Source: Spirochaetia bacterium
GTDB lineage: Bacteria; Spirochaetota; Spirochaetia; CADAEX01
Length of the DNA stretch: 64,000 bases
Reading direction: 5' to 3'
Assembly (NCBI GenBank): GCA_963662265.2
Contig: CAXXHA010000010.1
Location: 311,518-375,517 of the forward strand
Shown: positions 6,761 to 64,000 of the stretch, piece after piece
Layout: each line of letters opens with the position of its first letter
How positions within the stretch are numbered: position 1 is the first letter of the stretch
Notes under the pieces: model-generated
The model's database searches: none
What the model was told of the DNA's origin: nothing
Seen by the model: only the letters and a program-made list of their open reading frames with translations
Made by a program: the position numbers and the translations under genes

Positions 6761-9700
6761 TCAGCATATAACAGTGTCTCTTCCATGCTCTTTGGCAATA
6801 TAGAGTTTTCTGTCAACATCAATAATCATTTTATCTGCGTAATCATAGTCTGTGTTATCTGTTGAGACAATTCCAATACTTGCTGTAAGGAATTTAGAAA
6901 CAGCGCTGCCTGAATGCACAATTTCAGCAGATACAAGCTTCTCCCTTATTTTTTCCGCAACAACAGATGCCCCTTCCAGATCTGTATCAAGAAGTAGCAG
7001 AATAAACTCCTCCCCGCCATATCTGAAAACAGTGTCTGTTTTCCTGGAAACTGCATCGCAGAGAATATCTGCGAATTTCTTCAGACACTTATCTCCCGCA
7101 ACATGCCCGTAGGTATCGTTATAAGCCTTGAAAAAATCTATATCTGCCATTAAAAGGGAAACCGGCATACCCAGCCCTTTTATGAAGGTGCCAGCCGTTC
7201 TCAATAGTTTCCCGGAAGTGATGCCTGTTGTAAACTCCTGTAAGGGGATCAATCCTTATAAGACGGTCAAGTTCGCAGTTTGCATCAATAAGTTCATTTT
7301 TCAGGCGGTTCTCTTCCCTGAGCCTTTTTACACTTTCCTTTCCCCTCACAATCATTATTATTGAATAAAAAACAGTGATTAAAGCTGTCAAATAAAGAAT
7401 ATAGGCATAAAAGCTTCTGTAAAAAGGAGGCGATATTACAATATCCATATATGGTTCATCACTGCTTATTTTGCCGCTGCTGTTTGAACCTTTAACCCTG
7501 AAAGAATATCTGCCGGGAGGAATATTGGTATAATTTGCATAATTATTATTGCCTGATGAAACCCAATTCATTATCAAATCCCTCAAGTATATATTCATAC
7601 CTGTTATTAAGCGGGGATGTATAATCGAGAGCAGCAAAATTAAAAGAAAATGAGTTGTCGCTCCAGGGAAGCTCAATTACACCGGGATTAAAGACAGTAT
7701 GTCCCCTGTCGAAAACATATTCCTTCCTGAAAACTTTAAAGCTGCTTATAACAACACGCGGATCATAATTCCGAATAAAATAAGACTCTGTATCGATTTT
7801 ATAGATAACTCCGGAAGCAGATATGTAGAAGTTGCCGTCTCCATCCTTCTCGATATCCCCTTTTAGCTCCTGATCATCCATGCCAAACTGATACGACAGG
7901 GTAAAGATCCTGTTCTCCCTCCTGTCTATAACTGAAAGCCCCTTGTTTGTCGTAACTACTATATTTCCCCGTCTGTCTTCCGATATTCCGGTAATATTAT
8001 TGCTCTGAAGACCATTTTCTTTTGTAAAATGATGAAAGTTTTCAGATTCATAATTATACCGGTTCAATCCTCCGCCTGAAGTTCCTAACCACATATCCCC
8101 GGCTGAATCTTTAAATATCTTGATTATCACATTATTGGAAATACCCTCACCCCTGTCATGATCATACAGAAAAGACCTTATTTTACCGGTTTCAATATCA
8201 TATATATTCAGCCCGAAATTTGTTCCTATCCAGATATTGCCGAATTTATCATCATTTATATCAAAAACCATCTGGTCGGTAATTCTGAAACCATCCTCTC
8301 CTTCAGGATAATAATGAACAGTGCTGCCCGATTTAACATCCCAGAGATAAACACCGTTAAGGTATGAACCAATCCAGAACCTTCCCTGTTTATCCTCAAA
8401 AATTGCATATATTATATCATTTTCCGGACTTCCGGCAGACTCATTGCCTGTCACATCAACAATCTCTTCTCCATCAAAAGAATAATGCCTGAATCCCTTT
8501 CCAGGAATATGCCGGTTAATCCCGCTGTTTGTGCCTATCCAGAGATTATCACGGCTGTCCAGAAATAATTCATTGACAGAATCATTGCTCAGGGAAAAAG
8601 GATTATTCCTGTCATGAGAAAACCTTGATAATTTATCCTTTTTACTTTCATACCTGTAAAGACCGCTGGAATAAGTACCTATCCAGAGCAGTCCCTCATC
8701 ATCAAACAACAAATCTTTCATCCGTTCATCAGGTATTGAAATACTATCTCCGCTGATACTGTAGAGAAACCTGCAATCCTTTACATCGGGATTATACTTA
8801 TTGACTCCTCCACCGTTAGTCCCGATCCAGATAAGACCGGAATCATCCTCCAGAAAGGAATATCCTATATTGTTGGAAATAGAATACTTATTACTTTTAT
8901 CAGCTTTCAGATGAATGTAATCAGCTTTAAGAAGAGAAGTGAAATCCTCAAAATAATAAATTCCCCCACCCCAGATACCGGCCCAGAAATGTCCTCTGCT
9001 GTCTTTTTTCAGGAAATAAAACCTGTTGTCGGGGAATTTAAGAGTCGTTACAGTCATTTCAGACTCATTAAATACAGAAATACCGCCATCCCAGGAAGCA
9101 ATAAGAAACCTGTTTTTATCAATTTTTTCAATATCCATTATATATTCTGAAGGAAATTCAATATCAGAACTGCTGCTTGTTCTGAAAAACCTCCCTTCAT
9201 GAAAAAATGCAAGCCCGCCGTATGTGGCAACCCAGATCCTGCCGTCATCCCCGGCATATATATCCCTTACAGAGTTGTCAGGCAGCGAAGATTCATCCCC
9301 CGCTTTGTTTACATACTCTGTAATATCTCCTTTTTCAGGGTCAAGAGAGAGAAGACCGGAAAGAGTACCGATCCATATCCGGCCGGTTCTGTCCTTCGCT
9401 ATGCTGACAATAACCCTGGAAAATTTCTTCCTGCTTTTACTCATATCAGACAGGGAATAATGCCTTATTTTTCCTGATACAGGATCCAGGGCAGACAGGC
9501 CGCCGTATGTGCCTATCCAGATAATATCTTTATCACTGTCATAATACATGGTCTGAACCAGGTTGTGCTGAAGGGAATTGTTCCTGAAAGGAAGATGCTC
9601 GTAAAGGATAAAATCCTTGCCATCATACCGGTTAAGCCCGTCCTGGGTTCCGAACCATATAAATCCCCTGTTATCCTGAACCATTGAAGAGATGCTGTTT

Positions 9701-49698: not shown

Positions 49699-51104
49699 TG
49701 TTTTACTATTTTCCCTTCTTCAAGAATCTGTACAGCTCTCTGAAGAACAAGATCAAATTCAATATCAAAAATCGGAGGGTTATTATTTGTCTTGTTAAGT
49801 TCATTTCTTATCAGCTTCTTTATTATCCTTTCCTTGAGAACTATTTTGTCAGCAGAAAGGTCAAGTATAAAACGCTGGATATCTGATTCTCCGGGGTTTG
49901 GATTTTTCTTGACAAAATCCTGGATAAGAAATTTTTCAATTATATTTTTATAAGATTCTGATTCTTTATCTGTAAATTCATCCTCTTTAACCTCAAGGTC
50001 AGGATCTATCCCGATTTTATCGATATTAATGCCGTCCGGTGTATAATACCGGGACATGGTGAGCTTGAATCCCCCTTCTCCTATTGTCCTTACCTGCTGG
50101 ACCGATCCCTTGCCGTATGATGTTTCACCGAGAATAAATGCCCTCTTGTTGTCCTTGAGAGCGCCGGACAGGATTTCAGAAGCAGAAGCAGAGCCCTTGT
50201 CTATCAGTACAACAATCGGTAAATCTTCAGGAACCATTGTATTGGTTTCGGCGCGGTAAATCTTGTTTTCGGAAGGTATTTTTGATCTTGTACTTACAAT
50301 GACTTCATCAGACAGGAAATAGTCTGCTATATCTGTAACAGAAGAAAGAAGTCCGCCGGGATTTCCCCTCAGGTCTATTATCACAGATTTAAACCTGTTC
50401 CTTTTGAAATCCTCAAGCGCGTCCTTTACCTTGCCGGCAGTCATTGGCGTAAACTGAATAATCCTAAGGTACCCGATATTCTTATCTATCATACTGCTTC
50501 TTACTGTCGGGACAACAATATTTTCCCTGGTAACATCGAGTGAAAAAACAATATCCTCGCCTCTCAGGAAAGTAATATTGACGTCGCTTCCCGCCTCGCC
50601 TCTTAAAAGCCCCATAACCTCATCAAGAGTCATGTTTTCAGTCGATTTTCCGTCAATCTTTATTATATAGTCTCCTGCAGAGACACCAAGCCGGTATGCC
50701 GGAGTTCCCTCTATCGGTGCAACAACACGGACAAAGGGGAGATGCTCCTCATCATAGCTTGTATCGCCGTAAAACTTGCTTATATACATTCCAACTCCGC
50801 CGAACTTTCCCGTAGTTGTATCTGAAAGATCACTCATATCATTTGCAGTAAGATATACTGAATAAGGATCATCGAGACTCTCAAACATCCCTTTCATCGC
50901 ACCTTCGAAAAGTTTCTTCGGATCAACATCATCAACATAATAATTCTGGATAAATCTCATAACCTGATCAAGAACAGTTATATATTCAACACGTTCCTGA
51001 TTTACATTCTGTGCAGATACAGTTGGAGAAACAGAAAAGAATATAATTCCTATTGAGACAATAACACTAAAAAAAACCCAGTAATATTTTTCTTTTTTAA
51101 ACAT
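49695..51104 (-). CDS. ctpA: Carboxyl-terminal processing protease (S41 with PDZ)
   Basis: LDDPYS, FGGVG, DLRGNPGGLL, SASASEI, GETSYGKGSVQ. Confidence 0.92.
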   Translation of the reverse strand: MFKKEKYYWVFFSVIVSIGIIFFSVSPTVSAQNVNQERVEYITVLDQVMRFIQNYYVDDVDPKKLFEGAMKGMFESLDDPYSVYLTANDMSDLSDTTTGKFGGVGMYISKFYGDTSYDEEHLPFVRVVAPIEGTPAYRLGVSAGDYIIKIDGKSTENMTLDEVMGLLRGEAGSDVNITFLRGEDIVFSLDVTRENIVVPTVRSSMIDKNIGYLRIIQFTPMTAGKVKDALEDFKRNRFKSVIIDLRGNPGGLLSSVTDIADYFLSDEVIVSTRSKIPSENKIYRAETNTMVPEDLPIVVLIDKGSASASEILSGALKDNKRAFILGETSYGKGSVQQVRTIGEGGFKLTMSRYYTPDGINIDKIGIDPDLEVKEDEFTDKESESYKNIIEKFLIQDFVKKNPNPGESDIQRFILDLSADKIVLKERIIKKLIRNELNKTNNNPPIFDIEFDLVLQRAVQILEEGKIVKQ

Positions 51105-51300
51105 AGTTCCCCCTGTATATAAAATATTCTATTGCAGGCTTGTATTTGTCAAGAATATTAAAATATCTGAAAATAAACGGTTTTAAAATATTTTTTAACA
51201 CTATCTATTTTTTATCATATATAGCAATCTTTTCAAATACAGTTTTTTTAATGAAAAGCTTATTGACCTGCTGTTTTATGACCCGTAAACTACTATTTAA

Positions 51301-51678
51301 ATGAAAAAACTATTTATCACAGGGATAATCTGGGAAATTGTCAGATTCACAACTCTTTTTCTGACAACTGCATCAAAAATAAATGGAGATCTGATACTTT
51401 TTTTCACATCTCAGCAGTTTATTTTGTTTTACATCTATTATTTTCTTATTCACGATACAGAAAAATACTGTCAGTATATGAAAATACTTGCAGCTGCTAA
51501 ATTCCTGAGCCTTTTTACCGGCATTTTATATATTGTAAAACTGTTTATAAAAAGCACTTTTTCTGTGGCAGATATTCTGTATCCTGCAAACATAGTTTTT
51601 ATAGATGGATTGTTTTTTATTGTGCTTATATATGTTGTTATAAGATACTTTAAAAAAGTACAGGAATCAGAGGAATAA
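51301..51678 (+). CDS. Hypothetical membrane protein
   Basis: 125-aa hydrophobic ORF ending 3 bp before the next gene. Confidence 0.55.
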   Translation: MKKLFITGIIWEIVRFTTLFLTTASKINGDLILFFTSQQFILFYIYYFLIHDTEKYCQYMKILAAAKFLSLFTGILYIVKLFIKSTFSVADILYPANIVFIDGLFFIVLIYVVIRYFKKVQESEE

Positions 51679-51681
51679 ACA

Positions 51682-52821
51682 ATGCAGGTAATACCAATAG
51701 CAAGCGGAAAAGGGGGAGTCGGAAAGACTCTTGTTGCGGCAAATCTGGCAATAGCCCTGGGAAAATCAGGAAAAAGAGTAGTACTGGCTGACCTTGACCT
51801 GGGAGGATCAAATCTCCACCTGGTTCTTGGAACAACCGGTCTTAACGCGGGGATAGGGAATTATATAAATACCCCTGATATTGATTTTGAATCTATTGTC
51901 TATGAAACAGATTATAAAAATGTCAGATTTATACCGGGCGATTCAGAAATTCCGGGTATGGCAAACCTGAAAGCTTCCCAGAAAAAAACGCTTATCAAAA
52001 AGCTGTTCTCTCTTGACTGCGACTACCTTATTGTCGACCTGGGAGCAGGGACAAACTACAACACAATTGATTTTTTTCTCGCATCGGGACAGGGGATTAT
52101 AGTAACAACTCCGGCCCTTACTGCAACGCTTAATGCATATGTATTTATAAAACATTCAATATTCAGGATCATGGATACCTCTTTCAGAAGAAAAACTGTG
52201 GCAAGAGGCTATATTGACAGACTAAAAGAGGACAGCAGTCTTATCCAGAAAATATATATACCTAAAATTCTTGAAAACATAAAAAGGGAAGACCCTGAAA
52301 GCTATAACAGGTTTGAGGCAAAAATAAGGAATTTCTCACCTCTGCTTATACTAAATATGGTTGAGGATCCCAGGCAGTCTGCAATTGCGGGGAAACTGAG
52401 AAGATCCTGCAGGGAATACCTCGGACTAGACCTTGAACACCTTGGTGTAATTTACAGGGATGAACTTCAGAATATTGCGCTCAATTCAAGACTCCCTATA
52501 GTAAGCTATAAACCAAGATCTGTGCTTTCCCAGGCAGTTTTCAGGATAGCAGATAAACTTCAGATTGATTTCAGGGCTGAAACAAGTGCTGATGAAGATT
52601 ATTTTGATGAAACATACCTGAATGCGGAAATAGAGGCTCAGAATGACTTCAGTACAAAAATGCAGTCAATGGAGGAGCTTCTGCACAGCGGAACTCTGAA
52701 TTCATCCGATATGATAGATATTATCAAGAGCCAGCAGATTGAAATCACAGAATTAAAAAAGGAAAACAACCTTTTAAAAAACAAACTTGTTAAAGCATCT
52801 GAACAGGGATACAGGATTTAA
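51682..52821 (+). CDS. MinD/FlhG-like P-loop ATPase with C-terminal extension
   Basis: ASGKGGVGKT deviant Walker A, DLDLGG.NL, IVDLGAG. Confidence 0.85.
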   Translation: MQVIPIASGKGGVGKTLVAANLAIALGKSGKRVVLADLDLGGSNLHLVLGTTGLNAGIGNYINTPDIDFESIVYETDYKNVRFIPGDSEIPGMANLKASQKKTLIKKLFSLDCDYLIVDLGAGTNYNTIDFFLASGQGIIVTTPALTATLNAYVFIKHSIFRIMDTSFRRKTVARGYIDRLKEDSSLIQKIYIPKILENIKREDPESYNRFEAKIRNFSPLLILNMVEDPRQSAIAGKLRRSCREYLGLDLEHLGVIYRDELQNIALNSRLPIVSYKPRSVLSQAVFRIADKLQIDFRAETSADEDYFDETYLNAEIEAQNDFSTKMQSMEELLHSGTLNSSDMIDIIKSQQIEITELKKENNLLKNKLVKASEQGYRI

Positions 52822-52926
52822 TTACATCAGATTCAGTCAGAAATTCCCAGCAGTAAGCGGTTCTTCTGTTTGAATCTGGTTTTTTATTATTCTGTTTATA
52901 CCATGTGAATCAGCGGGAGAAAGCAA

Positions 52927-53940
52927 ATGCAGTTATTCATAAACTACCCTTCATGGATTAAACCGGAAATAATACCCGGATTTCCGGTAAGATGGTACGG
53001 CCTTATGTACCTGATAGCCTTTGTTATCGGGTACATACTATTTAAAAAGCAGGTAGCAGAACGGAAACTTGAAATCAGCGATGATGATATATCCAACCTC
53101 TTTTTCTGGATAATACTGGGAATTCTCCTGGGAGGAAGAATTTTTTCAACACTTGTATATGATACAACAGGAAAGTACTGGGCAAACCCGCTGCTTATCT
53201 TCTGGCCTTTTGACAGCAACTTCAAGTTTACAGGGCTGCAGGGAATGTCATATCACGGGGGACTTCTCGGAGGCATAACCGCAATGATAATTTACTGCAG
53301 GAAAAAGCATCTTCCGGTTGTTGTTACAGGAGATATGCTGGCAGTATCTATCCCGCTCGGTTATACATTCGGAAGGCTTGGAAATTTCATAAACGGGGAA
53401 CTTTACGGAAGGGTTACTTCGGCAGACTGGGGTATGATTTTTCCCTATGCAAGAAAATTCCCTGTATCAAGCGGCTGGGTTGTGGAAATTGCAGAGAAAG
53501 CAGGGATAGACCTTGCAGCGGCAGGAAACTATGTAAATTTGCCCCGCCATCCGAGCCAGCTTTACGAGGCGTTTTTTGAAGGAATTTTTCTCTGGGCTGT
53601 AATGTGGTTTATATTAAGAATGAGAAAACATGCCCCAGGGGAGTTAATGGGTTCATATGTACTCGGATACGGAGTAATCCGCTTCTTCATTGAATACTTC
53701 AGGGAACCGGATGCAGATATCGGCTTTATTCTAGAACTGTCAGGAAAAAACAATCCAATCCACACTTTGAACTCTTTTTTCAACTTTTCAATGGGACAGC
53801 TTCTCTGCTTTCTGATGATTCTGACAGGAGCAGCTGTTATCGCTGTATTCAGAAAAATAGAGCTTGCTAAAACCGAAGCAGAAGGTAACAAGCTTCAGAA
53901 AGACAGTCAGCTAAAAAAGAAGAAGAAAAAAAGACATTAA
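52927..53940 (+). CDS. lgt: Prolipoprotein diacylglyceryl transferase
   Basis: RWYGLMY, GMSYHGG, GRLGNFINGELYGR, RHPSQLYE, RFFIEYFREPD. Confidence 0.95.
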   Translation: MQLFINYPSWIKPEIIPGFPVRWYGLMYLIAFVIGYILFKKQVAERKLEISDDDISNLFFWIILGILLGGRIFSTLVYDTTGKYWANPLLIFWPFDSNFKFTGLQGMSYHGGLLGGITAMIIYCRKKHLPVVVTGDMLAVSIPLGYTFGRLGNFINGELYGRVTSADWGMIFPYARKFPVSSGWVVEIAEKAGIDLAAAGNYVNLPRHPSQLYEAFFEGIFLWAVMWFILRMRKHAPGELMGSYVLGYGVIRFFIEYFREPDADIGFILELSGKNNPIHTLNSFFNFSMGQLLCFLMILTGAAVIAVFRKIELAKTEAEGNKLQKDSQLKKKKKKRH

Positions 53941-54027
53941 AATCACAAAAAAATAATCAGTTCTTCTGTTCCGTTTGCATCACGACTTTTTTTAACTTAG
54001 AATTTAACCTGTAAAAGGGAAATCAAT

Positions 54028-56454
54028 ATGGTGCAGAAGTTTCAGAAGAATAAAGAACAGGAAAATGACTACCGGGAATATATAAAATCTGTTCTCTGCT
54101 GTGAAAATGAAGATGAAAAAATATGCAGGGAAATATTATCCCATAAAAAATTCATGGACAGCCAGATGCACAGAGATGTTGATATTGATGTTGCAATACT
54201 CGACTATATCACAAGCATAAATAAGGATATCCAGATTCCGTCTGTCTTTGACAGCCTGAACATCAGAAAACTTTATCATCCTTCCAGAAACCACTACAAA
54301 AAACTAAAGCCCTTCGATACATCAGATCTGTCAAGAGATTTAAATACAGAAATTGAAAGGGCGCACCGCTACGGCTCACAGCTCTCTGTTCTGATGTTTG
54401 ACCTTGATGAAAGCATTGATCCTGATCCCGATTCAGATGATATTTCAGAATTCTTTTTTTCAAATATAAGCCGCCATGTCCGCCGCACAGATACAGTATA
54501 TTCATATGAAAAAAACCACTATGTTCTTATACTTAGTGAAACAAATATAAACGATGCAGTTAACACTGCATTTAACCTTCAGAACTGGTTTCAAAATGAG
54601 AAGTTTAAAAAATCCTCTCCAAAAATGATAAATATCGGAATAGCAGCATACGGAATGCATGGAATTGATTCAGACCACAAACTCATTTCAGCTGCAGATA
54701 AATCTCTGTGTAAAGCCAAAGAATCGGGCGGCGGCAGGATTTGCCTCTATCAGGACAGGAAAATTTTTGATATTGAAAAACCGAAGAACAGCTGTATAAA
54801 CATACAGAAAACCTCTGAAAGGCTCAGCTTCAAGGGTCTCCCGATTCATAAGGGAATGGCTGCCGGTAAAATATTCATCTACAACGACCTGCTCTCACAT
54901 GAACACGAATCATACGATATAAGTGAGGAAAACCTGGAAAAGGAGCTCTCAAGAATCATAACTGCAATAGAAAATGTTGAAAAAGATCTTTCCGATGTCG
55001 AGCACCTGGTAAACAGGGACCTGAGCGAAGAATATGCTGCAATTTTCCAGGCGCACCGCCTTATTCTGAAGGACAGCCAGCTGTTCAATGAAATTAAAAA
55101 AGATTTGTATGAGAAAAAAATAAACGGTGAGAAAATTGTAAGGGATGTATTCAAGAGATGGGAAAAGAGATTCCTTGCATTCGATGATGAAATATTCAGA
55201 AACAAGTCACAGGATATTGCAGATATCTCTTCCAGGAGAATCAAAGAGCTTACAGGGATAGACAGTCATATACTGGAAGAAGCTCCGGAAGATTCAATTA
55301 TATTTGCAAACCGCCTTCTCCCGTCAGATACAGTCAATATAAATAAAAACAACGTCAAGGCAATTGTAACTAAAGAGGGGGGTAAATTCTCACATACAGC
55401 AATTCTCTCAAAAGCAATGAATATTCCTCTTGTCATCATTGAAAACCTTGACCTGAGCAGCCTTCACAGAGAGGAAACAGTTATTGTTAACGGGGAAACA
55501 GGAGATGTTGTTATAAATCCGGACCAGGAGGAAATGGAAAGCGCGGAAAAGCAGCTTGAAGAAACAACAGGCAGGGAAAGCTTATCCGGAATAATGCAGA
55601 AATCAGAAAAGATCTATTACAGGGGAGAAGAAGTCTTTATAAGCGCGGCAGCATCAAGTCCTGATGAAACCGAGGAGGCTTTATTGTATGATGCATACGG
55701 TATAGGGCTTTTCAGAATGGAGGTTCTTTATCTTTCGCAATATACATTACCGGAAGAAAAGCTTCTTGTCAGTGAGATAGAAAAAACAATAAAAAAGTTT
55801 AAAAGACGGGAATCTGTTATCAGGCTCACAGATATAGGCGGAGATAAAACTCTTCCATACATAAACATTACAGAAAGGTATAATTCCAACCTTGGTGTAA
55901 GAGGGGTTCGCCTCCTGCGCAGCTATCCCGCCATTCTGGAAACTCAGCTTCGCTCATTGATTAAAATCGGGCAGAAATATGATATAAAAATAATGGTTCC
56001 CATGGTTACGCTTCCGGAGGACATGGTTTTTATCAAAGAAATGATTTTAAAACTCAAAAAAGCGATGAAAAAAGAAAAAGACATACCAATCGGTGCAATG
56101 ATAGAAACACCTTCTTCAGTAATTACCATTGATGAGATCCTGGAACTGAGTGATTTCGTTAGTATAGGATCAAATGACCTTATCCAGTACACAATGGCGG
56201 CAGACAGGGAAAAACTCTCAGTCAGCAAATATTATGAAAAAGGCAATGTTGTTGTTCAGGAATTCATAAGAAAAGTCATTGAAAAGGCTGCTTCCAAAAA
56301 CATTCCGGCATATCTCTGCGGAGAACTTGCCCAGAATACAGATTTCACAAAAAGCCTGCTTGATTTAGGATGCAGAATATTTACAGTAGCCCCGGTCATG
56401 ATTCCGGCAGTAAGAAACGCAGTTATAAAGGCATCTGAACAGGAAGAAGCCTGA
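54028..56454 (+). CDS. Fusion of a degenerate GGDEF domain to PTS Enzyme I (PEP-protein phosphotransferase)
   Basis: EIERAHRY...LSVLMFDLD, RRTD, ADKSLCKAKESG (GGDEF fold); EI motifs SHTAI, GIGLFRME, DIGGDK, MIETP, SIGSNDL, LCGELA. Confidence 0.85.
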   Translation: MVQKFQKNKEQENDYREYIKSVLCCENEDEKICREILSHKKFMDSQMHRDVDIDVAILDYITSINKDIQIPSVFDSLNIRKLYHPSRNHYKKLKPFDTSDLSRDLNTEIERAHRYGSQLSVLMFDLDESIDPDPDSDDISEFFFSNISRHVRRTDTVYSYEKNHYVLILSETNINDAVNTAFNLQNWFQNEKFKKSSPKMINIGIAAYGMHGIDSDHKLISAADKSLCKAKESGGGRICLYQDRKIFDIEKPKNSCINIQKTSERLSFKGLPIHKGMAAGKIFIYNDLLSHEHESYDISEENLEKELSRIITAIENVEKDLSDVEHLVNRDLSEEYAAIFQAHRLILKDSQLFNEIKKDLYEKKINGEKIVRDVFKRWEKRFLAFDDEIFRNKSQDIADISSRRIKELTGIDSHILEEAPEDSIIFANRLLPSDTVNINKNNVKAIVTKEGGKFSHTAILSKAMNIPLVIIENLDLSSLHREETVIVNGETGDVVINPDQEEMESAEKQLEETTGRESLSGIMQKSEKIYYRGEEVFISAAASSPDETEEALLYDAYGIGLFRMEVLYLSQYTLPEEKLLVSEIEKTIKKFKRRESVIRLTDIGGDKTLPYINITERYNSNLGVRGVRLLRSYPAILETQLRSLIKIGQKYDIKIMVPMVTLPEDMVFIKEMILKLKKAMKKEKDIPIGAMIETPSSVITIDEILELSDFVSIGSNDLIQYTMAADREKLSVSKYYEKGNVVVQEFIRKVIEKAASKNIPAYLCGELAQNTDFTKSLLDLGCRIFTVAPVMIPAVRNAVIKASEQEEA

Positions 56455-56586
56455 ATCAGAATTTACAGTTTTTAGTGAAACTGTTTCTCCGGAAATTAAA
56501 TCACATGTTTCAAGCAAAAAAAATCCCTGCCGCCGGCAACAAGCAAACACACTGCCGTGACAGGGATTATATTATAATTTATCAGA

Positions 56587-57039
56587 TTACATCAGAACAA
56601 TATTATTGTTTTTGCAGTCTTCCCTTACGTTATCAGGCCAGAGACTTGCCTGAACTTCGCCGATATGCACTTTTCTGAGGAAAAACATGCAGAGCCTTGA
56701 CTGGCCGATACCGCCGCCGATAGAGTAGGGCAGTTCACAGTTTAAGAGCCTCTTGTGAAACATGAGTTCTTTTCTGTCTTCAAGGTTTCTTATTTTAAGC
56801 TGCTTCTCTAGAGCTGTCTCATCAACCCTGATCCCCATTGAAGATATTTCAAAACATCTTTCGAGAACAGGGTTCCATACAATAATATCACCGTTAAGAC
56901 CGTTGTATCCGTCACTGTTTGGTGTACTCCAGTCATCATAGTCAGGAGCTCTTCCGTCATGTATTTTACCGTCTGAAAGCTCTCCCCCGATTCCTATGAT
57001 AAAAACAGCCCCGTATTCCTTTGCCGCAAAAGATTCCCG
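56587..57039 (-). pseudogene. asnA: Aspartate-ammonia ligase, 3' part only (cut at the chimeric junction)
   Basis: [33 protein letters not shown]...[14 protein letters not shown]...[10 protein letters not shown]; the N-terminal half is replaced by unrelated sequence. Confidence 0.9.
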
Positions 57040-58033
57040 TACGAAAACGTGGGTCGGTGATCGCTTTCTGCAGCAGTTCTACTGCACGTTGAGACTTCTG
57101 CTTGTAGTAGGGCTTAATCACATCCGAACTCAGTCTAAGCAGGTCGCCATTACCAATGATATGGTTCGCCAGCGCTGGACCAACACTGCCTGGCGCTAAG
57201 CTAATAATGCCATTCATATTGGTCAAAGCCTGGGTAATCGCTTCATTAGCGATCACAATACCGCAGCGTACGCCCGGTAATCCCAGTTTGGATAAGCTCA
57301 TACACAGAATCGTATTGTCATTCCAGAAAGGTTCAACGTCTTCAAAAATGATGTTCGGGAATGGCAAACCGTAAGCGTTATCGATGATTAGCGGGATGTT
57401 GTTTTCACGCGCGAGCTTGTCTAGTTTACGGATTTCTTGATCCGTGAGTACGTTACCTGTTGGGTTGGTTGGGCGAGATGCACAGATAGCAGCGACGGAG
57501 TCATCGACTTTTAGCTTTTCAAAATCAACGTGGTATTTAAACAGGCCATTATCAAGTAATTCGATTTCCGGGTGGTACGAGACGAAGATGTCTTCATCAA
57601 TCCCCGCATCGCCATAACCAATATACTCTGGCGCGATCGGTAACAGCACTTTTTTGTGTGAACCGTCCGGCTGTTGCCCGGCGAGTAAATTAAATAGGTA
57701 GAAGAAACCGCTTTGGCTACCATTAGTCAGACTGATGTTTTTCTCACTGATGTTCCAACCGTAGGTTTCACGGAACAGCTTAGCCAATGCTTTAACAAAC
57801 GCATCTTTGCCTTGTGGACCATCATAGTTAGTCAGTGCGGCGATGAGTTCTCCGCTGGCGAGCATTTCCTCACTGGCTTGGTGAAAGTAATCGAGCATGG
57901 CAGGAATGGCGGCGGGATTTCCTCCACCGAGCATGATGGCACCTGGTGTGCGCAGACCATCATTTAAATCATCCATTAACTGCGTGATACCTGAATACTG
58001 ATTAAATTTTTCACCAAACTTTGAGTACTGCAT
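57040..58033 (-). pseudogene. avtA: Valine-pyruvate aminotransferase, C-terminally truncated at the junction (Vibrio-type)
   Basis: SGITQLMDDL, LGGGNPA, SRPTNPTGN, DNAYG, SLSKLGLPG.R.G; similarity ends at AITDPRFR. Confidence 0.9.
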
Positions 58034-58259
58034 GTTTACTTATACCTAATTCATTGTGATTGCTTTGTGTAATATTGCTGACTGAGCTTCAGCTTATAGT
58101 GTAATACTTGACCTTACCCTAATGTTATTACGACGCAAAGTGTGAATTCACTCGAAGAAGAAAAAAGTGTCTGTTCAGACCAGATGAATGGATTATAAAG
58201 TGAAAAGAGGATTAAAAAGGGAAGCCTACGCTTCCCTTGCTGGTGGAGAGATAGATGTG

Positions 58260-60344
58260 CTATTCACCAGTGTAGACAATAAGTACTTTGTCATCCTGAT
58301 ACTGACGCTCGAATGCGTAGTACCCTTCCTGATTACGGGTAATGTGCTGACCTTGAGCAACAGCAGGGTGACGTTTACGGAACTCGCCCAGTTTTTGCCA
58401 GTGCTGCAGTAAGTCTTCACGCTCGCCATGAATCTTATCCCATGGCATGTCGGAGCGGGTTCCCTGGTGAGTATCGGATCCAGTATGACCAAAGTCTCGG
58501 GCTATTTCGTCGCCGTAATAGATCTGAACCGCACCCGGAGCCAACATTAACGCATTTGCGGCGCGTGCCTGATCATCAAAGCTGCGACTACGGGCAGACC
58601 AGAACAGTTGCGTGTCATGAGAAGAAAGGTAACTCAACACGTTGAACTCTGGGTCCTTATTGATTTGCTCTGCATAGCGTCGGTAATCACTGTCGAGGTT
58701 GGCAAAGCATTTCAGCGCTTTTGGTGCGACATCTGACTGGAATTCGAAATTGATAATTGAATCGAATCCGTTATCAAAGTACGGGCTTTTCACCACACTG
58801 TGCGCCCAGACTTCGCCCGTCATCCAAAACGGCGAATCATCCAGTGCTTTGTCAGGATGGTTTTGCTTCCACTCTGCCAGCGCTTGTGTGGTGCTGGTTT
58901 TGAGTTCTGACCACGCTTCCATTTCTACGTGCTTCGCGGTATCGACACGGAAGCCATCAATGCCATATTCACGAACCCAATCGGATAACCAGGTGATCAG
59001 ATGTTCGCGCGGTGTCTTTTGTTCATCACGTGCAGCAGTGTCTTTGTTGTGGAAGAAGTTTGGCAAGCCGGTTTTCTCTGTTGATCCGGTTTTCAGGTCC
59101 GGTAAGTAGTTCAGAGACATGCTGATATCGTTGTACCCCGGCGCATCGTAATTGCCGATGTCGGTTCGAATCCAGTCTTTACCCCACCATTTTTCCCATG
59201 CTTCACCGTCACCATATTTGATGTAATCGTTGAAGCTGTGCCAACTCTGGCCTGATTTTGGTTGCCAGTCGGTCCATTTTTCACCCAGCACTTGTTGCGC
59301 TTCTTGGTCATCAAGGTAAAGCTGACCAAAGCCAAACTCCTGCATATCGGCCAGTGTTGCGTAGCCAGTGTGATTCATTACGACATCCCAAATGATACGG
59401 ATACCTTTGTTGTGTGCGGTATCGATGAAGGTTCGCAGCTCATCTTCGGTGCCCATATTGGCATCGAGCTTGGTCCAATCTTGATGGTAGTAACCATGAT
59501 AGCCGTAGTGTTTGAAATCGCCTTTGTCGCCGCCGCCAACCCAGCCGTGAATTTGCTCTAGCGGTGACGTAATCCAGATGGCGTTAACACCGAGAGAGTC
59601 AATGTAATCGAGTTTTTTGGTCAGACCCGCTAAGTCGCCACCGTGGAAGGTGCCGATTTCGTATTTACCGTCTTTGCTGCGGCCATAGCTGTTGTCGTTG
59701 TCTGGATTCCCATTGTAAAAACGGTCGGTCATGACGAAATAAACCGTGGCGTTATCCCAACTGAATGGTTTATTCGCCTGTTGTTCAACCTCCTCTAGCA
59801 GTAGCAGCCCCTGACTCATTGGGCCTGGCTGAAGGGTGACTGCACCATTGGTTACGGTTGTCTCTTGCCCAGTCAGAGCATCTCGAACCAAGGTGCCATC
59901 ACTAAAGGTTTCCGCGACATTGATGGTTTTAGCTGTGTCACTTGCGACAGGGCAAGTGAAGCTGGTTACCTGAGACTGTTTTGGTTTGATCTTAACCGTC
60001 AGCTCATTGGTTGTTGGGTTGAGCGTAAACTGGTAGGTATTGGCTTTGAAAATGCGCAGCGGCATAGTGGCATCCGTTGCACAGTTATCCATTTTTAATG
60101 GTGTATTAAATTTGATGCGGTTTTCTTCTGCCAGAGCGAAGCGACTGCCACAGCTTTGTTTGCTGTCGGCAATCGTGAAAGTGTAATTGCCTTTATCCAG
60201 TTTTTGTTCTGCGACGAGTAACCCCTGATCGTTTTGTTCGAACATGGCTTTGTCATCACCGACGCTTAATATAATGGCATTTTCTGGAATTTGGCTGCAG
60301 GCACTAAGTAGACCAATAGAGAGTGCGAGAATTGTTTTTTTCAT
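58260..60344 (-). CDS. Lipoprotein alpha-amylase (GH13, MalS-like)
   Basis: LSAC lipobox, YFVMTDRF.NG, GGDLAG, DVVMNH, GFRVDTAKH, GEVW, SSHD. Confidence 0.9.
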   Translation of the reverse strand: MKKTILALSIGLLSACSQIPENAIILSVGDDKAMFEQNDQGLLVAEQKLDKGNYTFTIADSKQSCGSRFALAEENRIKFNTPLKMDNCATDATMPLRIFKANTYQFTLNPTTNELTVKIKPKQSQVTSFTCPVASDTAKTINVAETFSDGTLVRDALTGQETTVTNGAVTLQPGPMSQGLLLLEEVEQQANKPFSWDNATVYFVMTDRFYNGNPDNDNSYGRSKDGKYEIGTFHGGDLAGLTKKLDYIDSLGVNAIWITSPLEQIHGWVGGGDKGDFKHYGYHGYYHQDWTKLDANMGTEDELRTFIDTAHNKGIRIIWDVVMNHTGYATLADMQEFGFGQLYLDDQEAQQVLGEKWTDWQPKSGQSWHSFNDYIKYGDGEAWEKWWGKDWIRTDIGNYDAPGYNDISMSLNYLPDLKTGSTEKTGLPNFFHNKDTAARDEQKTPREHLITWLSDWVREYGIDGFRVDTAKHVEMEAWSELKTSTTQALAEWKQNHPDKALDDSPFWMTGEVWAHSVVKSPYFDNGFDSIINFEFQSDVAPKALKCFANLDSDYRRYAEQINKDPEFNVLSYLSSHDTQLFWSARSRSFDDQARAANALMLAPGAVQIYYGDEIARDFGHTGSDTHQGTRSDMPWDKIHGEREDLLQHWQKLGEFRKRHPAVAQGQHITRNQEGYYAFERQYQDDKVLIVYTGE

Positions 60345-60500
60345 TGTGTCCTTCCCCCGAATAAACAGATCTTTTATAACAAAAAGAAGCCTCTACAATC
60401 CGAGCGGTGCACCAACAAGTTAAACCTCTCTCACCCTACAAATTTTTGTCTTGTTCACAAAATGAGTAATAATTCCCGCTAATCTCATCTTTTGGCCAAC

Positions 60501-60528
60501 AAAAAAGGGAAGCTGATGCTTCCCCTTT
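60501..60528 (-). terminator. Intrinsic terminator after glyS
   Basis: GGGAAGC-loop-GCTTCCC with T6 on the minus strand. Confidence 0.65.
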
Positions 60529-60576
60529 GGTTATCTTGTGATTTCTTTTTCAGGCAGTAACTTAGTTATAGGTTAC

Positions 60577-62637
60577 TTATTTTTGAAGAAGAGAGATGTC
60601 GGCGATCTGTAGGAACAGGTTGCGCAGATTGTTCAGCAGGGTCAGACGGTTTTTCTTAAGTGCTTCGTCGTCTGTCATTACCATTACGTTATCGAAGAAT
60701 GCATCTACCGGCTCACGCAGGTCCGCAAGTTTGCTTAGGGCTTCTTGGTAGTTACCCGTTGCAAATGCTGGCTCTAGTGCTTCAGTCATCACTTCAACGC
60801 TTTCTGCTAACGCTTTTTCTGCGTCTTCTTGTAGAAGAGATAAATCGATTTCTTCAGCCAGTTCGCCGTCGAATTTCGCCAAGATATTACCTACACGTTT
60901 GTTCGCTGCCGCCAGAGATTCTGCCGCTTCTAGCTCACGGAAGTGAGATACCGCTTTTACGCGTTGATCGAAATCTGCTGGTTTTGTCGGGCGACGTGCC
61001 AGTACAGCATGGATAATATCGACACTGAAGCCTTCGTCTTTATACCATGCATTAAAACGACCCAGCATGAATTCGATAACATCGTGTTCAACGTTGTCGT
61101 TAGTCAGCTTAGAGCCAAATTGTACTTTTGCTTCACGGATCAGGTCGAGCAGGTCTAGGTTATAGCCATTTTCAACGATGATACGCAGTACGCCCAGAGA
61201 AGCACGACGAAGTGCAAATGGGTCGCTGCCTTTTGGAGCTTGACCAATACCGAAGATACCAACGATGGTGTCCAGCTTGTCAGCCATTGCCACTGCAGAA
61301 GAAATCGCGGTGCTTGGCAGAACATCACCAGCGAAACGCGGCATGTACTGCTCGTATAGGGCTAGTGCAACTTGCTCATCTTCACCATCGTGAGTTGCGT
61401 AATGCATACCCATAACACCTTGAGTATCCGTGAATTCGAATACCATTGAGGTCATTAGGTCACACTTCGCCAACAAGCCTGCGCGAGTCGATTTATCAAC
61501 ATCCGCACCAATTTGTTTCGCGATGTAGCCTGCAAGTGCAGTAATGCGATCGGTTTTGTCTTTGATTGTGCCCAGTTGCTTTTGGAAAATCGCGTTTTCC
61601 AGTTCAGGAAGGCGGTCAATCAGTGGACGCTTGCGGTCGGTGTTGAAGAAGAACTCGGCATCGGCAAGACGTGGACGAACCACTTTCTCGTTACCTTCGA
61701 TGACGTAGCGAGGCTCTTTCGATTCAATGTTCGACACAAAGATGAAATTAGGCAGTAGTTTCTTGTCTTCAGAGTAGACAGGGAAGTACTTCTGGTCACC
61801 TTTCATGGTGTAAACCAATGCTTCAGAAGGCACTTTCAGAAATTCTTCTTCGAATTTCGCTGTTAGTACCACTGGCCATTCAACCAGAGAGGTAACTTCT
61901 TCTACCAGGTCATCTTCTAGATCAGCGATACCGCCAACCGCGGCTGCCGCTTTTTTGGCGTCAGCTAGGATGATAGCTTTACGAGCTTCGTAATCCGCCA
62001 TAACTTTACCGCGTTCTTCAAGAATCGCCGGGTATTGCTCAGCAGAGTCGATGGTAAATTCTTGCTCGCCCATAAAGCGGTGACCGCGGATAGTTCGGCC
62101 AGATGCGACGCCAAGGATTTCGCCTTCGATGAGGTCACTGCCCATTAGTATGGTTAGCGTTTTAACCGGACGAATAAATTGAGTCGTCTTGTTACCCCAA
62201 CGCATTGGTTTTGCAATAGGTAGGTTTGCCAGTGCTTTTGCTGCTAGTTCAACGATAAGATCGGAAGTATTAATGCCTTTAACTTCTTTCTCAACATAGA
62301 TTTTTTGCGTCTTCTCATCGACGTTAACGTTACTTAAGTCAACACCATTCTTCTTCGCCCAACCTTCAGCAGCCTTGGTTGGTGAAAGGTTTTCATCAAA
62401 GGCAACAGACTTTGTTGGGCCCATGATTTTAAGAGTTTTATCTTCTTGACCTTCAGCCAACGCTGCCACTTTAAGTGCCAGACGGCGAGGTGCTGCAAAC
62501 CACTTGATGCCTTCATGAGCAAGCTCTGCGCTTGCTAGCTCAGCTTCAAAGTTTGCTGCGAATGCTTCAGCCAGAGTACGAAGTTGCGTTGGTGGTAGCT
62601 CTTCCGTACCCAGCTCGATTAGAAATTCTTTTGCCAT
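60577..62637 (-). CDS. glyS: Glycyl-tRNA synthetase beta subunit
   Basis: [43 protein letters not shown]-terminal DALR domain. Confidence 0.97.
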
Positions 62638-62651
62638 GTTAGATCGACCCC

Positions 62652-63572
62652 TTACGCGTTATCTTCTTTTTTACACATTGGGAAGCCAAGTGCTTCACGT
62701 GATGCGTAGTATGCTTCTGCTACTGACTTAGTCAGGTTACGGATGCGCAGGATGTAGCGTTGACGCTCAGTTACTGAGATCGCTTTACGTGCATCTAGCA
62801 GGTTGAACGCGTGGCCTGCTTTTAGGATGCGTTCGTAAGCAGGAAGTGGAAGAGGCTTTTCAAGCGCAACGAGCTGTTGACACTCTTTCTCACACTGTTC
62901 AAAGAAGCCGAATAGGAAATCAACGTCAGCATGCTCGAAGTTGTAAGTTGATTGTTCCACTTCGTTTTGGTGGAAGATATCACCATACGTGACTTTGCTG
63001 CCGTCTGGTGCGATATTCCAAACTAGGTCGTAAACCGAATCTACTTCCTGGATGTACATAGCAAGTCGCTCGATACCGTAAGTAATTTCGCCAGTGACTG
63101 GTTTACACTCAAGGCCACCAACTTGCTGGAAGTAAGTAAACTGTGTCACTTCCATGCCGTTTAGCCATACCTCCCAGCCTAGACCCCATGCGCCTAGAGT
63201 TGGGTTTTCCCAGTTGTCTTCGACGAAACGGATATCGTGTACAAGTGGGTCAATACCAAGAACTTCAAGGGAACCAAGGTACAACTCTTGGATATTGTCT
63301 GGCGATGGTTTTAGCGCTACTTGGAATTGGTAGTAGTGCTGAAGACGGTTAGGGTTTTCACCGTAACGGCCATCAGTAGGACGACGTGAAGGTTGTACAT
63401 AAGCTGTCGACATTGGCTCTGGACCAATTGCTCGTAAACAGGTCATTGGATGAGAGGTACCCGCTCCAACTTCCATATCGAGTGGTTGAACAACGGTACA
63501 ACCATTTTGAGCCCAATAATCCTGCAGCGCGAGGATCATTCCCTGGAAGGTTTTGATATCGTATTTTTGCAT
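62652..63572 (-). CDS. glyQ: Glycyl-tRNA synthetase alpha subunit
   Basis: [39 protein letters not shown]. Confidence 0.97.
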
Positions 63573-63853
63573 AAGTCAGGTTCGCGCGATTCTCTTGTTA
63601 CTCGTAAATTCGCCATCTATGCTGAGTTTTTCAACTCTAACAACGGTGATAAAGAGTAATTACGGTTGAATAAATTAACAATCTAGTATAACCAGATATT
63701 GAGCATGGGAGTAGAGCTAATCTTGATTAATTCATGGGCGATTTTCTCCTTTAATGAATATTTACCACGTTATCTGCTGTATTTTTCTTAAAAGGGAGCT
63801 TTCTGCTGCTTTGGTGCTTGAGATGCATAACAAGGTTGGCTAGAATTGCGCCT

Positions 63854-63978
63854 GTCTTTGGGGAGTAGCTTACCCGGTGAAGTTTCCATTTCATCAGGTT
63901 CGTTCGTCAACATAATTGGTGCAAAATCACCATGGCGCTCGAGACTCGAAGCCTTTCGAGTTTAGCAAGACCTTAGAC
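63854..63978 (+). ncRNA. yybP-ykoY Mn2+ riboswitch
   Basis: GGGGAGTAGC...TCGTCAACA...GGCG...GCAAGACC consensus blocks closed by GTCT/AGAC; the controlled gene lies outside the window. Confidence 0.8.
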
Positions 63979-64000
63979 AAATCACACGAACCGGGGTGGG

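Follow-up and report, generated by a model that had tools for sequence, protein, structure and literature searches.

The junction at position 57040 of the window, where a spirochaete asnA gene adjoins a Vibrio avtA gene, is in our assessment (with a probability of about 96%) that of an interspecies chimeric contig, which was made in sequencing or assembly and is absent from any cell. The window is the whole stretch of DNA analysed (64,000 nt), corresponding to positions 311518-375517 of contig C10 of the spirochaete assembly (referred to as G000). C10 is 375517 nt long and the junction is situated 6.96 kb from its end. The tail beyond this point is foreign, the true neighbour of the spirochaete flank is a different contig of the same assembly (C21), no contig bridges the junction in the public sequencing runs compared, and sequencing depth changes in a step at this position. 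An earlier note, made from the letters alone, had spoken against gene transfer and in favour of misassembly, contamination or concatenation; these observations, together with the terminal position of the foreign block and its match to a known Vibrio locus, bear this out.

The features of the region are listed below. L004 denotes a locus titled "MAG: uncultured Vibrio sp.", carried on a 46.9 kb contig; G001 is a single-contig genome of the same genus as the spirochaete, and G002 a second genome of that genus.

54028..56454, plus strand: native gene for a GGDEF-PTS Enzyme I fusion, 808 aa, neighbour of asnA (TIGR01417, E 2.5e-121, residues 269-806; TIGR00254 GGDEF, residues 101-238)
56587..57039, minus strand: 3' fragment of the native spirochaete asnA, aspartate-ammonia ligase, residues 196-345 of 345 (TIGR00669 positions 185-328 of 330, E 7e-67)
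56966..57039, minus strand: spurious ORF tail TGIFCGKG... up to the stop codon, 24 residues, asnA DNA read in the avtA frame, with no similarity to residues 332-417 of the L004 AvtA
57040, no strand: breakpoint base, a 1-nt overlap common to both parents (included in the identity with L004; the same base in the left Logan contigs and in G001)
57040..64000, no strand: foreign Vibrio block, 6961 nt, up to the contig end (99.986% identical to L004:2035-8994)
57041..58033, minus strand: 5' fragment of the Vibrio avtA, valine-pyruvate transaminase, residues 1-331 of 417 (NF006964 positions 1-332 of 417, E 5e-174)
58260..60344, minus strand: Vibrio alpha-amylase, 694 aa, complete (NF007057 positions 1-694 of 694, 1573.8 bits; inside the L004-matching block)
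60577..62637, minus strand: Vibrio glyS, glycine-tRNA ligase beta subunit, 686 aa (TIGR00211, E 1.8e-263; holds the sole difference from L004)
62652..63572, minus strand: Vibrio glyQ, glycine-tRNA ligase alpha subunit, 306 aa (TIGR00388, E 2.7e-169; the sole glyQ in G000)

The plus strand of positions 57030-57050 reads aagattcccg tacgaaaacg t. Read on the minus strand, avtA is reduced to its 5' part (codons 1-331 of 417), which adjoins, head-to-tail and in a different frame, the 3' fragment of asnA (codons 196-345 of 345). The sequence is therefore as the earlier note had described it, and the identity of both fragments was established by matches to the profiles NF006964 and TIGR00669. The AvtA fragment is identical to the AvtA encoded by L004 (417 aa) at 331 of 331 residues, and the L004 copy goes on to residue 417. 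The AsnA piece of C10 comprises the C-terminal 150 residues, ending in NNIVLM and a stop codon, and becomes readable on shifting the frame at 57039. The predicted ORF at 56966-58033 (minus strand; 355 aa) encodes AvtA up to ...DPRFR, followed by a 24-residue out-of-frame asnA tail; both genes are thus cut and mutually out of frame, and the tail beginning TGIFCGKG, called spurious in the earlier note, is indeed asnA DNA translated in the wrong frame.

The breakpoint was placed at window positions 57039-57041. The earlier assignment to 57040/57041 stands to within 1 nt; the identity with Vibrio includes base 57040. The native spirochaete continuation also has a T at this position, and this single base, common to both parents, represents the microhomology of about 1 nt that had been reported for the junction.

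The DNA to the right of the junction contains the avtA fragment, a complete alpha-amylase gene, glyS and glyQ, which had been recognized from the letters as Vibrio-like. Comparative analysis supported this: as compared from both ends, the tail and L004 share 4624 and 2337 identical bases flanking one extra C at 61663/61664, and the next-best loci after L004 show 89-91% identity to the tail. The AvtA fragment, used as a query against named genome contigs, returned 80 loci, the titles of which refer to Vibrio (77), Vibrionaceae, Vibrionales and Shewanella (one each). The identity with L004 stops at 57040, where L004 continues into an intact 417-aa avtA. At the other end the block runs to the terminus of C10, so there is one junction only and no second junction to host DNA. 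The assignment of the left flank to a spirochaete also holds: G000 contains three matches to FlaA (PF04620), a family of spirochaete periplasmic flagella, compared with none in 14 control genomes.

A search of 30 relatives, the two genomes of the same genus among them, did not detect the tail DNA; the lone match, of 30 nt in genome G009 (E 2.9e-4), was treated as a chance hit. BLAST comparison of all 80 Vibrio loci with G000 identified no other piece of L004 in the assembly, the remainder of the matches being low-identity homologues. Since the host carries its own dimeric-type glycyl-tRNA synthetase on contig C41 (TIGR00389, 537.7 bits summed), the glyQS genes of the tail would constitute a redundant second type of this enzyme.

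The sole difference between the window and L004 over 6961 nt lies within glyS, at 61663-61664, where the window has CC and L004 has C. In the window, glyS has an open frame of 686 aa, which implies a frameshift in the L004 copy at 61663/61664. This indel is probably a consensus error in either the window assembly or the L004 assembly.

The change of origin at the junction is also apparent from nucleotide composition. A 5-mer log-likelihood ratio was calculated for 7401 windows of 2 kb, using G000 without the tail as the host model and those parts of 79 Vibrio loci that are non-homologous to the window as the Vibrio model. The 11 highest-scoring windows were all located in the tail (0.23-0.37, compared with a genome mean of -0.258 and SD of 0.065), and the profile steps at about 57 kb. 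The GC content rises from approximately 0.40 on the left to 0.45-0.49 on the right. The abrupt change in codon style perceived earlier was confirmed by counting: the ratio of AGR to CGN arginine codons is 84/21 in five left genes vs 1/80 in four right genes, and ATA accounts for 96 of 214 isoleucine codons on the left vs 3 of 116 on the right (the same numbers of genes). The 5-mer scan revealed no second Vibrio-like segment of at least 2 kb in the assembly, and for this reason the tail does not cast doubt on other findings concerning G000.

Next to the tail, the highest 5-mer values (0.05-0.18) were those of stretches of contigs C32 (65-80 kb) and C24 (41-51 kb). They were considered as further chimeras and rejected on the basis of multiple matches to G001 and G002 at 92-96% identity. 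Rfam analysis of G000:C24:40000-53000 (L109) identified two complete 16S-tRNA-23S-5S operons arranged in tandem within 13 kb. The repeated units of G000:C32:64000-82000 (L108), which matched the same places in G001 and G002 as C24, presumably also represent rRNA. Tandem rRNA operons are uncommon in bacteria.

The true continuation of the spirochaete sequence was located within the assembly itself. A search of G000 for the asnA family revealed only two pieces, the C10 fragment (profile positions 184-328) and C21:1-204 on the minus strand (profile positions 9-77). The C21 piece (C21:1-264) encodes an 88-aa N-terminus and is open at the contig start. On the AsnA protein of G001 (345 aa), residues 1-88 correspond to the C21 piece (95% identity) and residues 196-345 to the C10 piece (91% identity), and the 107 residues between them are uncovered. 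The left flank is collinear with both same-genus genomes at 74-84% identity, and both are without the right flank. In G001, C10 aligns up to L095:8708 (equivalent to window position 57038) and C21:1 begins at L095:9031, while the matching ends of C10 and C21 in G002 fall at 9268 and 8936. Because of this synteny with two genomes and the tiling of the asnA pieces, C10 and C21 are judged to be true chromosomal neighbours in the same orientation, with approximately 322-331 bp inside asnA left unassembled between them. The Vibrio tail sits where the gap between C10 and C21 begins, and C21 opens in asnA without any Vibrio sequence.

In L004, an 805-aa ORF (L004:10860-13277, minus strand) follows avtA at a distance of about 1.6 kb downstream; G000:C21:11800-12500, approximately 11.6 kb past the start of asnA, matches it at 65-71% nucleotide identity. 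The match was read as that of a conserved homologue and not as Vibrio DNA. It is probably a conserved housekeeping gene that lies near the joint in both genomes by happenstance.

The continuity of the junction was then examined in public sequencing runs. Six runs hold at least half of the sampled 31-mers of window positions 55500-58600, and three runs of one sample hold 0.99 of them; runs X1-X18, which hold at most 0.12 of the sampled words, were excluded. Logan contigs were compared over window positions 50000-64000 for X19 and X20 (one sample), X22 and X24, i.e. four runs from three samples and three studies. The sample holding 0.99 of the words is possibly the source of the assembly and thus not fully independent, while X22 and X24 belong to different samples and different studies. 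No contig or joint bridges 57040 in any of the four runs, as judged from Logan contigs, which differ from raw reads in that they can drop rare variants.

Left contigs of X19, X20 and X22 fit the window up to 57040 and then continue with 123-137 other letters (e.g. X19 record 3, 247 nt, depth 5.6; X20 record 10, 254 nt, depth 19.5). By eye, 26 of the 30 loose letters compared agree with asnA of G001, and translation by hand in the asnA frame gives ...KKYPDATPEE before RESFA, compared with KKYPDSSPEE in G001. Right contigs fit the window down to 57040 in all four runs and then run on past the junction (e.g. X19 record 4, 5262 nt, depth 1139.3; X22 record 21, 6839 nt, depth 266.9). The loose letters compared (30) are identical at every position, by eye, to the reverse complement of L004 just beyond the junction. 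The same loose ends at 57040 are therefore present in the runs from other samples and studies, X22 and, for the right side, X24.

The word depth, given as one mean per contig and not as per-base read depth, was 6.09 on the left and 1139.3 on the right in X19 (187-fold), 18.1 and 3278.9 in X20 (181-fold), and about 5.3 and 266.9 in X22 (approximately 50-fold), and the change falls in the bin containing 57040. In X24 the right side has a depth of about 4-15 and the left side, which is partly covered (5 of 30 bins empty), of 0-5, so no inference was drawn from the left flank of this run. The earlier note had named spanning long reads or a spanning PCR product, with even coverage, as the observation that would speak against an artefact. 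On the Logan contigs the outcome was against a real junction, with none of them spanning it and a 50- to 187-fold step in depth.

Across the three samples and three studies, the spirochaete (left flank at 95-100% identity) recurs together with this Vibrio lineage; the runs are recorded under three coded organisms, E, F and G. In two of these samples Vibrio is approximately 50-187x more abundant than the spirochaete. The pairing may be a recurring, host-associated one.

The surroundings of the junction were also searched for signatures of transfer. No integrase or transposase was present among the 13 larger ORFs (from 100-120 aa upwards) scanned on both sides, and no tRNA gene was detected in 50000-64000. 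No repeats flank the junction; within 55000-59000 only imperfect pairs of 14-25 nt were found, located elsewhere. All three scans were thus empty, in agreement with the earlier statement that neither a mobile-element signature nor a repeat marks the junction.

A real horizontal transfer, in which a piece of Vibrio chromosome entered asnA by illegitimate recombination with the loss of about 320 bp of the gene, is very improbable. The presence of both organisms in runs from three samples would have provided the opportunity, a microhomology of 1 nt fits illegitimate joining, and the public assembly does carry the junction. Nevertheless, within single runs the Vibrio side is 50-187x deeper, 57040 is bridged in none of the four runs, and an uninterrupted continuation of asnA was found in X19, X20 and X22. 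An insertion is further contradicted by C21, which starts in asnA without Vibrio DNA, leaving a single junction only. The block itself is 99.986% identical to a locus of a free-living Vibrio MAG, showing no amelioration, its cargo consists of housekeeping genes, one of them cut, and it is accompanied by no detectable integrase, tRNA gene or flanking repeat, nor was it found in the two same-genus genomes. We attach no more weight to a variant of this scenario in which the junction is real in a small spirochaete subpopulation. A cell surrounded by a dense Vibrio population would then have taken up Vibrio chromosomal DNA and, through microhomology-independent end joining, inserted it into asnA, and this rare variant would have been the one assembled. 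If true, such a junction would be a snapshot of the cross-phylum transfer of core genes prior to selection.

It is also unlikely, although by no means to the same degree, that the error arose after assembly, when scaffolding, gap-filling, polishing or file handling merged two contigs of one bin without Ns. In favour of this are the blunt joint, with a single shared nucleotide, and its position at a contig end beside a real coverage gap; a mis-binned Vibrio contig could subsequently have been joined. However, a free Vibrio contig at a depth of more than 1000x should far exceed 6.96 kb (the L004 contig has 46.9 kb, and the tail is covered by Logan records of up to 5-10 kb, themselves pieces of longer graphs), the bin contains no other Vibrio DNA, and scaffolders normally add Ns, of which none are present. 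An error of this kind is still an artefact, and differs from the preferred explanation in the step of the error alone.

According to that preferred explanation, a chimeric contig made in sequencing or assembly, C10 belongs to a low-abundance spirochaete whose true sequence runs via asnA into C21, with about 322 bp unassembled. Where the spirochaete coverage ended, 6.96 kb of a Vibrio that is 50-190x more abundant in this kind of sample was added, with 1 nt in common. The most likely cause would be that a thinly covered contig end was extended by one chimeric long read or by a false overlap. Collapse of a k-mer graph is unlikely, because the two parents have only 1 nt in common. A chimeric read or false overlap is favoured by the depth of the spirochaete (approximately 6-18x) relative to that of Vibrio (more than 1000x), by the length of the tail, which is that of a single read, and by the resolution of the tandem rRNA operons in the assembly, which suggests the use of long reads. 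A physical molecule with this junction, either a ligation chimera or a rare recombinant, could exist at low frequency.

Interspecies chimeric contigs in MAGs are a known class of error, and the finding is an ordinary one and not a biological feature. Like other such contigs, C10 contains two taxa on one contig, with an abrupt, gene-cutting breakpoint and a break in coverage, and is missed by marker-gene estimates of contamination. It differs from the usual De Bruijn-graph chimeras, formed across a shared k-mer, in that the joint involves no shared repeat or conserved gene; with 1 nt in common only, a graph collapse is less likely as its origin than a chimeric molecule or read, or a false extension of the contig end. 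The tail resembles a genomic island in its foreign composition and codon usage beside native genes. Unlike a genomic island, it has no integrase, tRNA/att site or flanking repeat, it carries core housekeeping genes and a truncated edge gene, and it shows nearly 100% identity to the donor lineage, a single junction at a contig end and a depth that differs 50- to 187-fold from that of its surroundings.

The significance of the tail is limited to data hygiene: a species-representative genome holds 7 kb of Vibrio DNA. The marker-based (CheckM-type) contamination of G000 is 2.26%, and the 7-kb tail goes unflagged. A preprint (10.64898/2026.10.15.759294) states that marker-based estimates miss foreign sequence joined inside a contig, and tools on this topic include metaMIC (PMC9661791) and ResMiCo (PMC10174551). 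If left untrimmed, the tail would enter annotations of the spirochaete as an amylase, a glycyl-tRNA synthetase of the tetrameric type and a truncated AvtA fused to AsnA, and would mimic cross-phylum gene transfer in comparative or pangenome work. The correction consists of cutting C10 after window position 57039/57040 (C10:368556/368557), dropping the tail and ordering C10 before C21 with a gap of about 322 bp in asnA.

The native neighbour of asnA, the 808-aa fusion encoded at 54028-56454, contains according to Pfam the N-terminal, mobile and C-terminal domains of PEP-utilising enzymes together with a GGDEF (diguanylate cyclase) domain, which lies at the N-terminal end, the Enzyme I part being complete. 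The region is collinear and conserved in G001. Run X22 has loose ends at 53934 and 54763, and in a contig of run X24 only 20 other letters separate 53933 from 56068; the strain in X24 may be without most of the gene. The pairing of GGDEF with Enzyme I seems to be an unusual one, and a connection between c-di-GMP and PTS signalling may be its role.
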